DNA of 32,000 nt from an archaeon (GTDB lineage Archaea; Asgardarchaeota; Thorarchaeia; Thorarchaeales; Thorarchaeaceae): positions 1 to 32,000 of the forward strand of contig JAJRZD010000049.1 of the NCBI GenBank assembly GCA_024275415.1, written 5' to 3'. The notes under the pieces are model-generated. The model did not search any database. It saw only the letters and a list, made by a program, of their open reading frames with translations, and had not been told where the DNA came from. Each line of letters begins with the position of its first letter. The stretch's first letter is position 1. Positions 3,684 to 10,467 of the stretch are shown here, piece by piece. Both the position numbers and the translations under genes were made by a program.

Positions 3684-3797
3684 TTTAAGCACTCAATCTG
3701 TGTTCACGAGTCCGCTCTATAACATTATTCATCGGTTCACAAATCATAAATACGCTGATGTCGAGGTTTGGGTGAAAGGGCACAATGGTGTACTATT

Positions 3798-4460
3798 ATG
3801 GGATTCCTAAGCGGTAAGAAAAAGATGGATGCAGAACGTGGGGTCTTAGAGATAAAGGGCACTATGAATGCGCTCACTCTAAGGATTAGACGGCTTGAAA
3901 CTCGAATGGCTGAAGAAAAACAAAAGGCAAAAGAAGCCATGAGCAGGGGTGATCGCACCATTGCTCGCCATCACCTGCGTGTAGCTGTTGATCTGGAGAA
4001 TCGACGAGGTAGGTACCAACAGCAATTCCTGACTTTAGAAACCGCTTTGATGAACATAGAGGAAGCAAAAGACCAGACCGAAGTTCTTCGGGTATTCACT
4101 ATTGCGAACGAGGCTCTTACTGCTGCACGTGCCATGTTGAAACCTGCTGAGATTCAGACGCAATTGGACAAGCTATCCCAATCTTTCGAGGAGATCTCGA
4201 TTGCTGGAGAACTACTCTCCGAAGACCTTTCTACTGGGGATATGAGCCTAGAAGCGGAGGACAGGATCGAGCGTCAGCTGGACGCTATGGAAGCAGAAAT
4301 CCTGCTGGAGAAGGAAGGAGTGCTACCACCATTGAAGACAGGTGCGGTACCAGAATCTCCTGCAGCGGCAAAGGAATCGGATACCAAGCGAGTAGATGAT
4401 CTTCTCGCAGATCTTGAAAGAGAAGCAAAGGAAGAACGCGAAAAAGAAGCCGAAGGATAG
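3798..4460 (+). CDS. Snf7 family / ESCRT-III protein (Vps20/32/60-like)
   Basis: All-helical, basic N-terminal half and acidic C-terminal half; pattern AKEAMSRGDRTIARHHLR...LE..R...QQQ..TLE matches the Snf7 core; acidic linker and terminal helix. Start moved to ATG 3798. Confidence 0.85.
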   Translation: MGFLSGKKKMDAERGVLEIKGTMNALTLRIRRLETRMAEEKQKAKEAMSRGDRTIARHHLRVAVDLENRRGRYQQQFLTLETALMNIEEAKDQTEVLRVFTIANEALTAARAMLKPAEIQTQLDKLSQSFEEISIAGELLSEDLSTGDMSLEAEDRIERQLDAMEAEILLEKEGVLPPLKTGAVPESPAAAKESDTKRVDDLLADLEREAKEEREKEAEG

Positions 4461-5362: not shown

Positions 5363-6511
5363 TCAACTATATTTGACTCCAGCGCCCGTATTCAGAACCA
5401 CGATATCTTCATCATGGTCAACCATTCCAGATTCTATTAGATTCCGCAGTCCTGCAATAGCCACCGCAGCCTCAGGGCATATGTCGATACCTTCCATCTT
5501 TGCAACGAAGTGTCTAGTAGGGACTATTTCACTTTCAGTGATTGCAATCGCCCCTCCTCCTGAACGCCTGAGAGCTGCAAGTATAAGTCTACCCGCAAAT
5601 GGCGAAGGTACTCTAAGACCGTACGCCTGCGTCTGTCCATTATCCCACGCCTTTATTGTCGATGCATTTGACTCGAATGCAGCAACAACAGGCGCACACC
5701 CTTCACTTTGTGCAGCATACAACCGAGGTCTCTCCTTGCCGATAAGGCCGATTGCTTCTAATTCTTCTAGCCCTTTCCATATACCTATCAACGCTGTGCC
5801 CCCTCCAGTAGGACAGATAATCACATCGGGCACATTCCATTCAAGCTGCTCTGCAATCTCGAAAGCGAGAGTTTTCTTACCCTCTACTCGATATGGCTCT
5901 TTAGTCGTAGACAAATCAACCCAATTGCCATTTTCCTGCCTCATCACCCGACCACTATCCGAGATTGTACCTGGGGTGGAATGGGTAACTGCCCCATACA
6001 TCTTGCAATCATTAAAGAACTGTTGAGGTGTGTCCTCTGGCATAAAGATGTGTGCTGGCACACCGGCCACAGCACAGTATGCACTGGTAGACACAGCTGC
6101 ATTCCCTGCTGAGGGTAGAGCGAATGCCTCTGCACCGAGCTCTAGATGCTTGGAGATTGCTGCACACAATCCTCTATCCTTGAAGCTCAAAGTGGGATTC
6201 CTTGATTCATCCTTGATTCTTAGGACATGCAGCCCAAAATGTGTGTTCAGCCTTCTTGTCAGGATCAATGGTGTCGCGCCCTCACCCAAGCTCATGATGA
6301 ACGAAGGTGATTTGACAGGGAGCAGCATCGAGTACCGCCACATCGAGTTGACAGGGCTCGGGAACTCGCCACAATCAACAGCATCGGTCACTTGATTCAG
6401 GTGGTATCTTGCAAGAAGGGGTGACCCACAGATGCAATAGGTCGCTTGGGCGTCAGGGGAGTATTGTTTGCTACATTCAGGGCATTCAAGATGTGAGATG
6501 TAGGATATCAT
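5363..6511 (-). CDS. thrC: Threonine synthase (PLP fold type II)
   Basis: N-terminal CxxC...C knuckle, SLGEG.TPL, NPTLSFKDRG (PLP lysine), SAGNAA, EGKKTLAFE, PTGGG, EAAVA; start moved to ATG 6511. Confidence 0.9.
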   Translation of the reverse strand: MISYISHLECPECSKQYSPDAQATYCICGSPLLARYHLNQVTDAVDCGEFPSPVNSMWRYSMLLPVKSPSFIMSLGEGATPLILTRRLNTHFGLHVLRIKDESRNPTLSFKDRGLCAAISKHLELGAEAFALPSAGNAAVSTSAYCAVAGVPAHIFMPEDTPQQFFNDCKMYGAVTHSTPGTISDSGRVMRQENGNWVDLSTTKEPYRVEGKKTLAFEIAEQLEWNVPDVIICPTGGGTALIGIWKGLEELEAIGLIGKERPRLYAAQSEGCAPVVAAFESNASTIKAWDNGQTQAYGLRVPSPFAGRLILAALRRSGGGAIAITESEIVPTRHFVAKMEGIDICPEAAVAIAGLRNLIESGMVDHDEDIVVLNTGAGVKYS

Positions 6512-6587
6512 TTTTCGGCATATATTACATCTAAGCGTACTGTTATATTTGCCCCTGTATCTTGTAACGGATGAGGATGTTCGCATA

Positions 6588-7796
6588 ATGGGTCAGTTAA
6601 GGCGAAAGGTTCTTCCTTTTTCTGCACTGGTTGGATTGAGTCGACTTAAGTTGGCCCTTATTCTAAATGGAGTGAATCCCCGTATTGGGGGTCTGCTGGT
6701 TTCCGGTTCGAAAGGTACTGGAAAGACAACACTCGTCCGTGCATTTGCAGAACTATTGCCTGAAGTAGATGTCGTTGAGGGTTGTCGGTTCGGGTGTAAT
6801 CCTAACCAGCAGGACGCCTTATGTCCTGACTGTCAAGCAAAGGTCGACATGGGCGAAACCCTTTCGTCAAAGAAGAGGCCCATGCGTGTTGTCAACCTTC
6901 CCCTGTCTACTACTGAGGACCGATTGATTGGAGCTCTTGATATCGAACGTGTACTTTCTGAGGGCATTCAGGCATTGAAACCCGGTATCCTCGCCGAGGC
7001 TCATCAGAATGTTCTCTATGTGGACGAAGTGAATCTTCTCCCAGACCATTTGGTGGATGATTTGCTGGATGCCGCGGCGACAAAGGTCAATGTCATTGAA
7101 CGCGAAGGTATTTCCATCTCACACCCCTCTGACTTTGTGTTGATGGGCTCGATGAATCCTGAAGAGGGTGAGTTGCGTCCTCAGTTGCTGGATCGTTTCC
7201 CCCTTCATGTATCTGTAGGGTCAGAATACAGCATTGAAGAACGCATGGAGCTAGTAAGGAGGAATCTGGCGTTCGAACAGAACCCCGATGCGTTCATGAG
7301 AAACTGGGAACCAGAGCAGAACGAACTGCGTCAGCAGATCATTGATGCTCGAGCGTTACTCCCAGATGTGGTTCTAAGTGATACTCAGCTTCGTGCTATA
7401 GCAATGGCGACCGACGCCCTTGAGGTAGACGGGGTTCGTCCTGATATCATCATCAGTAAGACTGCCATTACACTTGCTGCATTTCTTGGTAGAAAAGAGG
7501 TGGGTATTAAGGATCTGCAATTGGCGTCCCAACTGACATTGAGTCACCGCACACGGCGTGGAGGACTTCTAGAGCCTCCCTTACCCTCGGAGATCAATGA
7601 AGCCATCACTAAGGCGCATAATGTAGCACAGAAGCAAGATCGGAGAAAGTCCCCGACCCAAACGCCTCCTGAGAAACAAAGTGATGATAGTAAGAGTTCT
7701 GGTAGGCGCATGAGCGGAGGGAAATTTGGTCGTCAAGACACCTTTGCAGAGATGAGCATGGGTGAGAAGGGCAAAAAAAAACTCCGAAGAAAATAA
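6588..7796 (+). CDS. ChlI/BchI-like chelatase AAA+ ATPase (5' part of a frameshifted chlD-like gene)
   Basis: PFSALVG, Walker A GSKGTGKT, C.FGC.P...CPDC, LYVDEVNLL (Walker B), NPEEGELRPQLLDRF; ends in a Pro/charged linker and GGC AAA AAA AAA CTC. Confidence 0.93.
   Translation: MGQLRRKVLPFSALVGLSRLKLALILNGVNPRIGGLLVSGSKGTGKTTLVRAFAELLPEVDVVEGCRFGCNPNQQDALCPDCQAKVDMGETLSSKKRPMRVVNLPLSTTEDRLIGALDIERVLSEGIQALKPGILAEAHQNVLYVDEVNLLPDHLVDDLLDAAATKVNVIEREGISISHPSDFVLMGSMNPEEGELRPQLLDRFPLHVSVGSEYSIEERMELVRRNLAFEQNPDAFMRNWEPEQNELRQQIIDARALLPDVVLSDTQLRAIAMATDALEVDGVRPDIIISKTAITLAAFLGRKEVGIKDLQLASQLTLSHRTRRGGLLEPPLPSEINEAITKAHNVAQKQDRRKSPTQTPPEKQSDDSKSSGRRMSGGKFGRQDTFAEMSMGEKGKKKLRRK
7773..7781 (+). 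other. A9 slippery site, candidate programmed -1 frameshift or transcriptional slippage signal
   Basis: Nine A residues in frame (AAA AAA AAA). The -1 frame opens only after TGA 7763-7765 and the 0 frame closes at TAA 7794-7796, so the roughly 28-nt overlap is centred on this run. Confidence 0.75.
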
Positions 7797-7840
7797 GGAA
7801 CCCGCGCGGCAATCCCATCAAGGGGACAATCTGTGCAATC

Positions 7841-9280
7841 ATGATGGTTGCGACTTTTTCCTATTTTGCGTGGATTGCTATCTCTCCCGTCAATCTGATA
7901 TTGGGTTATCCCTTTGGTCAAATCCCCACTGATAACATCCCACTGCTTATGATTAACTCGATTCTGTACTTGCCTGTGATCTATACATTAATCAGACGCT
8001 GGCTTAGAACGATGGCTAAACGAAAATCTGGGCCGGCATCAGGTATTGATACTGTCGAGTCTGGGCCTGCTGAACCTGAACCAGGTGATGAGTGGGGCAA
8101 AGCAACCCGACCCTACAAGACCCAAGACACAACAAAGATCACAGGGTCTAAGTCAGACTTGCGTGACTCTGCTCTTGCGATTGATGCAGCCTTCTTTGTC
8201 AGGTATCCTGATCTTGATACAGGTGAAACTCTCTTCGATGCTGAAGAACTCCATCAAAAAGCAATGATCCGTTCTAAGGTTTCGTCGGGAGGCTGGTCGG
8301 ATAAACGTGCATCCACCCGTGGTGTGGGGTCTCTTGGTGCTGTGGAGTCTCTCAAGAGTGGAAGGCCTACTAGGTGGAGGCGTCCTGTGGGCGAGGTAAC
8401 ATCTATTCATCTGCCCTCGACAATCATCGCCGCAATATCAAGGATTGGCAAGTTGAAGAAGGGTGAACCAATAAAGATTCGGCCCGAGGATATCCGTGAG
8501 AGTGTCTTTACCAACCGGACTCCTCTCACCATCATCTTAGTAATCGATGTCAGTCTATCTATGAAGGGAAGCCTATCCGTAACGAGGAAGATAATTGAAA
8601 GGATAGAACGGGAAACCCGCGGATCGAAGGATCGAGTGGGAGTCGTGGCGTTCAAGGATAGTGGCGCTATCGAGGTTCAGGCACCAACAACGAATTGGAA
8701 CAAGATATATCGTGCATTGACTCGACTGAGAATCTCCGGTTTGACACCTTTGGCTGAGGGGCTGATGAAATCACTAGAAACCATCAAGCGAGAACGAATG
8801 AGGAATCCTGATGTCGAGTCGCTAGTCATTGTGATATCGGATTTTGCCCCTAACATCCCACTTGCGCAATCAGTGGGTCCTGGCCATGCCCAGTTTACTC
8901 CAATCAAAGATCTCGTCAAAGCTTCCCGTCTGATCCGTAAGCACAATGTTCGGCTAGTAGCTGTCGATGTGGATCGCGACCATAGAATGTGGTCTCGTGT
9001 ATTGAAACGACCTTACCACGAGGCCCTTGAACTGGCAGTCACACTTCGAATGAAAAAGGATGGACTCCCGTCTGTTTCCGAAACCATTCTTCGTGTCAAT
9101 GAGTTCAGACAGCAATTCAGTGCCTTTCTCATCGCACGGGCAAGCGGTGGTAAGACCTTCCTTGTTGAGGAGCTGCTGAAGGAGAAATCCGTACTTGGGA
9201 GGATCTTATCAGCTACCAGATCGGATGTACGAATAGATTCTGCCTCCCTGAAGTCAGCGGAAACCTATCTTGTCAAGTAA
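7841..9280 (+). CDS. vWA-domain (ChlD C-terminal-like) protein with two N-terminal TM helices; probably the 3' part of a frameshifted chlD-like gene
   Basis: MIDAS motif VIDVSLSM, GLTPLAEGL, VISDF, IHLPSTIIAA (ChlD-like IH..AT..AA); the frame is open from 7766 and is -1 relative to the upstream ATPase. Confidence 0.88.
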   Translation: MMVATFSYFAWIAISPVNLILGYPFGQIPTDNIPLLMINSILYLPVIYTLIRRWLRTMAKRKSGPASGIDTVESGPAEPEPGDEWGKATRPYKTQDTTKITGSKSDLRDSALAIDAAFFVRYPDLDTGETLFDAEELHQKAMIRSKVSSGGWSDKRASTRGVGSLGAVESLKSGRPTRWRRPVGEVTSIHLPSTIIAAISRIGKLKKGEPIKIRPEDIRESVFTNRTPLTIILVIDVSLSMKGSLSVTRKIIERIERETRGSKDRVGVVAFKDSGAIEVQAPTTNWNKIYRALTRLRISGLTPLAEGLMKSLETIKRERMRNPDVESLVIVISDFAPNIPLAQSVGPGHAQFTPIKDLVKASRLIRKHNVRLVAVDVDRDHRMWSRVLKRPYHEALELAVTLRMKKDGLPSVSETILRVNEFRQQFSAFLIARASGGKTFLVEELLKEKSVLGRILSATRSDVRIDSASLKSAETYLVK

Positions 9281-9363: not shown

Positions 9364-10467
9364 GTGAGTACTGAGAGCCTGATGCAGGTGTTCGATGACT
9401 GTACTTTTCATACGTTAGAAACAGGACTCGTGCGCACTACACCACTGGAGTACCCCCCCATGTTATCAGGAAAAGTCCCTCCCGAGGTATTGAAGTCACG
9501 AGTGTTCAAGCACCTAGGATTTACGAATCCTGACCTAATCCTAGGTCCGGCTGTTGGACAGGACGCCTCTCTGATTCGGATAGGAAACCGCATCATTGTC
9601 GCTTCCACTGATCCAATCACGGGTTCTGTTGAGGACATCGGCTGGCTGTCAGTGCATGTGAACGCCAATGATATCGCTACCTTTGGCGTCGAACCAAAGT
9701 GGTTTTTGGCTTCGATTCTGTTACCCTCTGGGTCAACTGAACACGAACTCGAACGGATCATGGCGCAAATCGATGATGCCGCAAGCTCACTGGGCATTAC
9801 TGTTGCCGGGGGACATACCGAGATAACGGAAGGAATTGACAGGCCTATTATCGCTGGCTTCATGATAGGCGAAACTACTGAGGGTGACTACGTGACCTCT
9901 CAGGGAGCTCAGCCTGGTGATGCCATCATAATGACAAAGTCGGCTGCTATTGAAGGGACTGCAATACTGGCTGCCGAAAACGCATCTGCATTGCAGCATC
10001 ATATTGAAGAAAGCATCATAACCGATGCTCTTGCCCTCCGAGAACAAATCAGCGTCGTCAAAGATGGTGTTATCGCTTTCAGGACGGGATTCATAACTGC
10101 GATGCACGATCCCACCGAAGGCGGGATTGCCAACGGGATTCATGAGATATGTGATGCAAGCAATGTCGGCTGTACCATTGTCAAAGAGCACATCCCTATC
10201 GCAGAGTCCACGCAGGCTATCTGTTCCTACCTGAATCTTGATCCCTTGCAGCTTATCAGTAGTGGTAGTATGTTAATGACCTGCGTAGCGAAGCATGCTC
10301 AGGATGTTATTGCATCTCTTACTTCCCATGGGATTCTGGCATCCAAAATCGGAGTAATTGAGAAGGACTTCACGAAACGCGATTTGCAGACTAGTGACGG
10401 AATTGTAGATCTTGTCCGTCCAGAAACGGATGAATTGTGGAGTGGTTTGAAAAAGATCAACTCATGA
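9364..10467 (+). CDS. AIR synthase-related protein (PurM/ThiL/HypE/SelD superfamily)
   Basis: GKVPPEVL, GP.VG.DA, STDPIT, HVNANDIA, GGHTE, MHDPTEGG, LISSGS; true start uncertain (9364, 9382 or 9460). Confidence 0.9.
   Translation: MSTESLMQVFDDCTFHTLETGLVRTTPLEYPPMLSGKVPPEVLKSRVFKHLGFTNPDLILGPAVGQDASLIRIGNRIIVASTDPITGSVEDIGWLSVHVNANDIATFGVEPKWFLASILLPSGSTEHELERIMAQIDDAASSLGITVAGGHTEITEGIDRPIIAGFMIGETTEGDYVTSQGAQPGDAIIMTKSAAIEGTAILAAENASALQHHIEESIITDALALREQISVVKDGVIAFRTGFITAMHDPTEGGIANGIHEICDASNVGCTIVKEHIPIAESTQAICSYLNLDPLQLISSGSMLMTCVAKHAQDVIASLTSHGILASKIGVIEKDFTKRDLQTSDGIVDLVRPETDELWSGLKKINS

Follow-up and report, generated by a model that had tools for sequence, protein, structure and literature searches.

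A conserved poly-A run as a probable programmed −1 recoding site in a ChlD-like gene of the Thorarchaeota

Introduction

The window analyzed here is a stretch of 32,000 nucleotides (positions 1 to 32,000 of contig JAJRZD010000049.1, assembly GCA_024275415.1) from a member of the Thorarchaeaceae, a family of the Asgard archaea, and within it we examine a locus at positions 6588–9280 whose two halves lie in different reading frames. The upstream open reading frame (ORF) encodes a ChlI-like AAA+ ATPase, the downstream one a ChlD-type vWA domain, and they meet at a run of nine A residues (A9). The comparison of this junction with its relatives makes it very probable that the locus is one ChlD-like gene, which a programmed −1 recoding site divides and which gives two products. 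Under standard decoding, translation would reach a stop four codons past the run and yield a ChlI-like ATPase of 402 aa, lacking both the hydrophobic hairpin and the vWA domain that follow; a slip of one base backward on the run would yield a chain of 897 aa in which the same ATPase is joined to the hairpin and the vWA domain (junction ...G-K-K-K-T-P-K-K-I-R-N-P...). Such a slip could be a tandem slippage of tRNA-Lys on A_AAA_AAA or the addition of one extra A by the RNA polymerase, and the resulting protein would be the same. The site would thereby set the ratio of short to long subunits built on a common AAA+ module, as in the published frameshifted chlD (fs-chlD) genes, and both products would presumably be made and assembled together.

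Poly-A frameshift signals in prokaryotic chlD genes, which the original prediction for this DNA had cited as a precedent, are indeed documented (PMC3711429; PMC5009743; PMC9227772). A "magnesium chelatase" cluster of 23 frameshifted genes with poly-A sites and a −1 shift was described in 2013 from Pseudomonas, Burkholderia, Delftia, Herpetosiphon, Methanocaldococcus, and Methanococcus, and in Escherichia coli reporters 63%, 40%, and 10% shifting was obtained with 11, 9, and 7 A's, respectively (PMC3711429). The subject was reviewed in 2016 (PMC5009743) and extended in 2020–2022, with the inclusion of "stage 1" carriers that have no large subunit (PMC9227772, and Antonov 2020 as cited there). 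A 2021 review of archaeal recoding accepted firm proof of a −1 shift for fucA alone, classed the chelatase genes of methanogens as "suggested," and contained no Asgard example (PMC8211752); our own literature search for frameshifted chlD genes in Asgard archaea found no report. The recoding principle is thus already published for chlD, and the Thorarchaeota gene is a new member of the group, in a new lineage, which is unannotated as such in the public records.

Results

The Two Frames and Their Single Point of Passage

Around the run the 0 frame reads GGC AAA AAA AAA CTC CGA AGA AAA TAA, and the −1 frame is open from 7766 to 9280 (table 1). Our re-reading of the sequence agrees with the original prediction on the A9, on the 0-frame stop, and on the TGA beyond which the −1 frame is open; a crossover interval of 28 nt (7766–7793), which contains the A9, is the sole stretch that allows passage from the 0 to the −1 frame, and the product sizes, recomputed from the ATG at 6588, came out the same. 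The two slippery heptamers that had been claimed fared differently: A_AAA_AAA lies in the phase of the 0 frame, but A_AAA_AAC is out of phase. The first ATG, GTG, or TTG of the −1 frame is found only at 7841, 60 nt 3′ of the run. What this frame encodes is, in order, a basic juxtamembrane stretch, a two-helix hydrophobic hairpin, a linker, and the vWA domain.

Table 1. Features of the recoded locus, in coordinates of the window
Feature	Position	Strand	Remarks
A9 slippery run, putative recoding site	7773–7781	+	In-phase heptamer A_AAA_AAA at 7775–7781
TGA closing the −1 frame, 5′ limit of the crossover interval	7763–7765	+	From sequence reading
TAA of the 0 frame, 3′ limit of the crossover interval	7794–7796	+	Four codons past the run; overlaps the −1-frame Ile codon ATA (7793–7795)
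0-frame ORF, predicted short product (ChlI-like AAA+ ATPase)	6588–7796	+	402 aa from ATG 6588; longest ORF from TTG 6549
AAA+ core	~6615–7589	+	Followed by a low-complexity basic tail
−1-frame continuation	7781–9280	+	499 codons plus stop; with 6588–7781, predicted long product of 897 aa
Conserved peptide [IV]-R-N-P-x-G-[DN]-P-I-K-G-T-I-C-A-[IV]	7793–7840	+	−1 frame, 5′ of any ATG/GTG/TTG
Two hydrophobic segments, predicted membrane hairpin between AAA+ and vWA	7823–7993 (~7823–7903, ~7937–7993)	+	Kyte–Doolittle scan, hydropathy alone
vWA (integrin-I-like) domain, ChlD type	8531–8985	+	Pfam VWA, residues 256–406 of P0002; VWA_2, 256–360

Long homopolymers are scarce in this genome. Its 3.53 Mb (47% GC) hold 10 runs of A or T of at least nine, none of them longer than nine, where ~34 would be expected from base composition, and this shortage suggests a general avoidance of slippery runs. 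Among those 10, the A9 at 7773–7781 is the only one to lie at a change of frame between long ORFs, here of 423 and 498 codons. Because long runs are scarce and this is the sole one that splits two long ORFs, the A9 is more than a chance feature. A search of public reads returned no RNA run and one DNA run (share of words, 0.04), which yielded a single contig of 195 nt; this contig, belonging to a relative of below 90% similarity, crosses the A9 site with no gap.

The Two Open Reading Frames Match Opposite Halves of One Protein Family

In profile searches, the upstream ORF matches TIGR02030 (BchI-ChlI) over residues 23–347 with 386.2 bits, together with Pfam Mg_chelatase, AAA_5, and AAA_lid_2, and its translation retains an intact Walker A (GSKGTGKT) and Walker B (LYVDEVNLL). 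The downstream frame matches TIGR02031 and Pfam VWA_2, VWA, and VWA_CoxE, and carries a D-x-S-x-S motif of the metal ion-dependent adhesion site (MIDAS) type. Of the fused model TIGR02442, the upstream ORF covers profile positions 2–354 (452.7 bits) and the downstream one positions 394–617 (96.6 bits); since they match opposite halves of this model, the two ORFs would be two parts of one predicted ChlD-like protein. A relative in which the gene is naturally in frame matches TIGR02442 in two stretches with 568.8 bits, another fused relative scores 549.9, and the ATPase of the in-frame relative matches ChlI structures (6l8d, E = 4e-99; 8osf, E ~1e-98).

The assignment has its limits. The cut-off of TIGR02442, a hypothetical equivalog named "putative cobaltochelatase," stands at 779.45 bits and is reached neither by the two halves nor by the fused relatives, and the 386.2 bits of the ATPase lie below the TIGR02030 equivalog cut-off of 466.95, so that it is ChlI-like and not an equivalog. 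Its bpMoxR match, at 19 bits, is below cut-off as well. Four of the traits by which fs-chlD genes are recognized are present at the Thorarchaeota locus: a ChlI-like upstream frame, a vWA domain in an overlapping −1 frame that has no start of its own at the overlap, a conserved A-rich site (A7–A11 over 60 distinct loci), and fused in-frame homologues.

Conservation of the Run and of the Frame Relation

The comparison set comprised 60 distinct Thorarchaeota loci spanning the junction, drawn from species-representative genomes and from many independent assemblies; two of them, L006 (on a truncated contig) and L058 (with a run of N), were scored −1 by eye, against a script output of 0 and +1, respectively. 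The ATPase and vWA frames stand in the −1 relation in 53 loci (A9 in 42, A10 in 7, A11 in 3, A7 in 1), although identity in the vWA half descends to ~54%. Orthologues split without an A-run and with an independent start, one of the outcomes that the original prediction regarded as fatal to itself, are thus not what this family presents. Six further loci are in frame, each being one A longer than its nearest relatives, and the last is +1, which brings the A9 total to 43 of 60. An uninterrupted run of at least nine A's occurs in 58 loci and A7 in one more, and the remaining one has a G inside a longer run. L016/L055 (G028; WJMJ01000071.1) stands alone in having its long run broken, AAAAAGAAA; the sequence CCA AAA AAA TAA, a second site that follows after 10 nt, provides an in-phase heptamer of seven A's with the 0-frame stop as the next codon.

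Such constancy is not what codon usage would lead one to expect. Only 38% of the Lys codons elsewhere in the window and in neighboring genes are AAA, yet the three Lys codons of the run stay AAA, and variation at third codon positions near the junction has almost reached saturation (1.46 bits). Because the run remains uninterrupted in spite of both, selection at the nucleotide level on the run itself is supported by the alignment. Its limits can be further narrowed: in eight relatives a TAA of the −1 frame overlaps the first two A's, so the shift would there be confined to the last seven, and in 55 of 59 loci the 0-frame TAA or TGA overlaps the I/V codon at the start of the conserved peptide.

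Both halves of the gene are under purifying selection. On the phylogenetic tree, the in-frame loci long enough to be placed (four of the six) are single tips, each with a −1 sister, and because in-frame forms are such lone tips, the −1 state is ancestral to the Thorarchaeota family and maintained in it. The in-frame forms themselves are probably real alleles, since the names of two of the contigs state a coverage of ~64x and ~68x. In either of the other two frames of the in-frame A10 alleles, a stop is met after a few codons; a slip there would still give a short ATPase, with the ratio of the products inverted. The +1 locus (L065, 1970–2010, in a Thorarchaeota metagenome-assembled genome (MAG), JAOUFI010000013.1) has an A9 but has lost one base just 5′ of it (GAGGC vs GAAGGC). 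Either the assembly is in error here, or this is a natural allele, for which another kind of slip would be required.

These observations bear directly on the suspicion that the split is an artefact or a sign of decay, that is, a homopolymer assembly error concealing a true A10, or a recent pseudogene. Homopolymers are error-prone, and the six related assemblies with one more A and an in-frame gene could be read in this sense. An error or a lesion would, however, have had to recur in 53 of 60 loci from many groups and assembly programs and across the divergence just cited, in a gene both of whose halves are under purifying selection; the in-frame forms are scattered over the tree as tips, and the coverage stated for two of them makes them look like real alleles and not like the hidden truth for all the loci. 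We regard this explanation as extremely improbable.

A Conserved Peptide Upstream of Any Start Codon

A further indication that the two frames are joined comes from the stretch that precedes the first possible start of the −1 frame. The 16 codons 5′ of ATG 7841 encode [IV]RNPxG[DN]PIKGTICA[IV], whose residues are near-invariant in 58 loci, and in the −1 frame column entropy over 7784–7840 takes the values 0.71/0.38/1.46 bits for the three codon positions. This near-invariant peptide and the coding-type pattern of entropy argue that the stretch before ATG 7841 is translated and under purifying selection. Where it overlaps the 0-frame stop, the motif opens with ATA, GTA, ATT, GTT, or GTC in 50 of 59 loci, and in the other 9 with GTG; with a canonical start in only those 9, independent initiation or termination–reinitiation cannot be the general source of the peptide.

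The competing view, in which the locus consists of two separate genes, with the vWA protein started at ATG 7841 or by reinitiation and the run being no more than the Lys-rich tail of the ATPase, agrees with the public records, where the downstream ORF is annotated as a separate "VWA domain-containing protein" of 492–513 aa, and with the existence of adjacent chlI and chlD genes in other organisms (PMC9227772). The invariable presence of an ATG 58–66 nt past the run and the GTG that overlaps the TGA stop in 9 of the 59 loci speak for it too. It would nevertheless leave 50 loci with no usual start at the overlapping codon, and the 16 codons 5′ of ATG 7841, the part of the junction best conserved as protein, speak against it; it would begin the vWA protein inside the first hydrophobic helix, in which ATG 7841 lies; and it explains neither the constancy of the three AAA codons nor the fact that one extra A gives a full fused ORF in six loci and that uninterrupted ORFs occur elsewhere. 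Two separate genes are therefore unlikely, though less so than an artefact.

Several results count against a single gene with a programmed site, and they deserve to be taken together. RNAalifold, applied to the junctions of 30 relatives, found no conserved pair downstream of the run, in which the site departs from the published fs-chlD signals, usually accompanied by a downstream RNA structure (PMC9227772). No conserved upstream element of the Shine–Dalgarno (SD) type was found either, and GGTGAG is not kept in other genera. Every locus examined has the ATG at 58–66 nt past the run, where it encodes the conserved Met of I-M-M in helix 1, and a vWA protein with a shortened N-terminus may to some extent be initiated independently; the GTG overlapping the 0-frame TGA in nine loci could permit termination–reinitiation. 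Nor is the frame relation entirely constant, given that six loci are in frame and one is +1. Finally, the loci are related by descent, so that the counts overstate their independence.

The Level at Which the Slip Would Occur

The original prediction had spoken of a programmed −1 frameshift and had pointed to a GGTGAG just upstream, complementary to the archaeal 16S 3′ end, and to a hairpin from about 7804, further away than a canonical stimulator. The shift at the run is supported comparatively; its ribosomal level is not established, polymerase slippage giving the same protein. The GGTGAG at 7761–7766 is present, but its role as a stimulator is not supported, for it only spells the M-G-E codons of the genus and is not conserved in other genera. 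The downstream hairpin is likewise unsupported, the fold of the single sequence (7782–7860) being no better than that of its shuffles (z = −0.34), in line with the RNAalifold result. A terminator-like hit at 7834–7852 was also considered and rejected, as it is at chance level (1 found vs 0.5 expected). ARAGORN recovered only 16–23 tRNAs from the MAG, and no tRNA-Lys was among them; it reported a tRNA-SeC(tca) in the same genome.

A purely ribosomal shift, nested within the single-gene reading, would have two tRNA-Lys slip on A_AAA_AAA at 7775–7781 while the mRNA stays A9. An in-phase A_AAA_AAR heptamer is kept in every variant, the seven A's of the L016/L055 site are short for polymerase slippage, the published family has been described as programmed ribosomal frameshifting (PMC9227772; PMC5009743), and a −1 shift on A_AAA_AAT is established for the archaeal fucA (PMC8211752). 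What fits it less well is that 58 of 60 loci maintain 9–11 A's, which exceeds the need of a heptamer, that neither a conserved stimulatory structure nor an SD-like element accompanies the site, and that the +1 relation of L065, perhaps an assembly error, could not be served by a −1 ribosomal slip; the E. coli reporter data, for their part, did not separate the two levels (PMC3711429). We consider an exclusively ribosomal mechanism a serious candidate, falling somewhat short of even chances. Because a length of at least nine is conserved and there is no stimulator, we lean slightly toward slippage of the RNA polymerase as the larger contributor, although the two levels cannot be told apart. In the +1 locus, the frames could be joined only if the RNA had one A fewer.

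Uninterrupted Homologues in Other Asgard Families

Outside the family an unbroken form of the same architecture is the rule. Five loci from other Asgard families carry the AAA+ and vWA parts in a single ORF of 833–900 aa, four of the five having hydrophobic segments at the same place, and the homologous basic patch, read in four, uses mixed codons (e.g., AAG AAG AAA or AGA CGT AGA) and has no run. We read the fused protein as the functional long form. The run seems to be a derived feature that arose within the Thorarchaeota family, given its absence from this site in other Asgard families. One locus from another Asgard family (L037, 1330–1345, in G041) has a ChlI-like gene that changes frame within the AAA+ part at GATATGAAAAAGC, where its relatives read L-D-I-E-R/K-A; as a recoding site it was rejected, for it looks like a loss of one base, through error or in a pseudogene.

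Among 68 long relatives drawn from a global library of representatives, 22 carry hydrophobic segments in the middle of the chain. These chains (P0019–P0102), of 775–1060 aa, combine a ChlI-like AAA+ part, two to six hydrophobic segments, and a vWA domain, and apparently form a broad, uncharacterized set.

Function and Genomic Neighborhood

The label "chelatase subunits" that the locus had received is doubtful. A CobN/ChlH large subunit (PF02514) was found neither in the genome itself, which is 92.9% complete, nor in 36 other genomes of the family, while the same profile gave matches in five other Asgard families and in five control genomes; in one of these genomes (G050) a single contig carries both the CobN match and, within ~600 bases of it, the ChlD-type vWA match. 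A classical chelatase role is doubtful because CobN/ChlH was found in none of the 37 family genomes searched, and on account of this absence and of scores below the TIGR02442 and TIGR02030 cut-offs, the gene is filed here as ChlI/ChlD-like and not as a chelatase. Its product would more probably be a membrane-tethered AAA+/vWA machine for remodeling or metal handling than a porphyrin chelatase.

Directly downstream, at 9364–10467 (+), lies a gene of the AIR-synthase family (Pfam AIRS and AIRS_C, with weak HypE, ThiL, and SelD-like NCBIfam hits, all below cut-off), which follows in 74 of 84 related loci and is not found at the uninterrupted-gene loci of other Asgard families. Upstream and divergent from the ATPase gene at 6588 (+) is thrC, 5363–6586 (−), encoding threonine synthase (NF006050, 477 bits); it is syntenic in the Thorarchaeota loci and absent from those of other families. 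The association with both neighbors may be plain shared gene order. The longest ORFs of thrC and the ATPase gene leave a single base between their start codons, and probably one of the two starts further in or the transcripts are leaderless. A gene of the Snf7/ESCRT-III family at 3768–4460 (+) (Pfam Snf7, 66.9 bits) is consistent with an Asgard genome.

Discussion

Among known recoding systems, the fs-chlD genes are the closest counterpart of the Thorarchaeota gene. Both have a ChlI-like AAA+ frame followed by a ChlD-type vWA domain in the −1 frame, a poly-A overlap site (A_AAA_AAR, often with 9–11 A's) under purifying selection, fused in-frame homologues, and an annotation as two genes; archaeal cases are known from Methanocaldococcus and Methanococcus, and some fs-chlD carriers also have no large subunit. 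The Thorarchaeota gene differs, first, in its lineage, which is Asgard, and in a run that seems to have arisen within its own family and is absent from other Asgard families. It differs also in the two-helix hydrophobic hairpin that comes right after the shift site, so that slippage would supply, besides the vWA domain, an anchor in the membrane, and in the score of its naturally fused relative, which remains under the TIGR02442 cut-off.

Two other comparisons are instructive. The dnaX gene, which encodes tau and gamma, has its −1 shift at A_AAA_AAG in E. coli, whereas in Thermus thermophilus an A9 is the site of transcriptional slippage (reviewed in PMC5009743). This single AAA+ gene likewise yields two proteins of different length with the ATPase in common, owing to slippage by one base where A's are repeated, and the A9 length agrees with that of Thermus; in dnaX, however, the slip makes the short form, whereas in the Thorarchaeota gene it would make the long one, and the SD-like element and hairpin that stimulate the E. 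coli shift have no conserved equivalent here. The alpha-L-fucosidase gene fucA of Saccharolobus solfataricus, with its −1 frameshift at A_AAA_AAT (PMC8211752; PMC8037382), is likewise an archaeal cellular gene split into two ORFs, which a −1 shift at an A-rich heptamer brings back together. It belongs to an unrelated gene family, is functional only at full length, has no two-subunit logic, and its site has 7 nt against at least nine.

A further comparison lies outside the chelatases. Pairs of an AAA+ protein (MoxR-type) and a vWA partner, such as CoxD/CoxE, work without a porphyrin-binding subunit. The Thorarchaeota gene resembles them in combining AAA+ and vWA/MIDAS parts without such a subunit, which fits the missing CobN/ChlH; unlike them, it has an ATPase of the ChlI type (TIGR02030, 386 bits) and not of the MoxR type (bpMoxR, 19 bits), and it is one recoded gene and not two genes.

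For annotation, the locus in the Thorarchaeota ought to be entered as a single recoded gene that yields two products, and not as a split pair. Well-supported recoding sites in archaeal cellular genes are few, and a family-wide site in the Asgard archaea is a strong comparative example; its natural series of alleles (A7, A9, A10, A11, in frame, and +1) is well suited to tests of ribosomal versus polymerase slippage. The hairpin and the absence of CobN/ChlH indicate a role other than the metalation of porphyrins, a question already raised for the "stage 1" carriers of fs-chlD genes (PMC9227772).

A bolder view, which we put forward only tentatively and think on balance doubtful, is that the slip acts as a switch of localization and stoichiometry in a machine that is not a chelatase, exchanging a free, soluble ATPase for a membrane-tethered form that bears the vWA domain. 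The ratio of the two within one AAA+ ring would be set at the run, could possibly be reset heritably by changes between A9 and A10, of which the six in-frame alleles would be instances, and would have originated independently in the ancestor of the Thorarchaeota. Were this view true, it would be the first conserved cellular recoding event to be described in the Asgard archaea.

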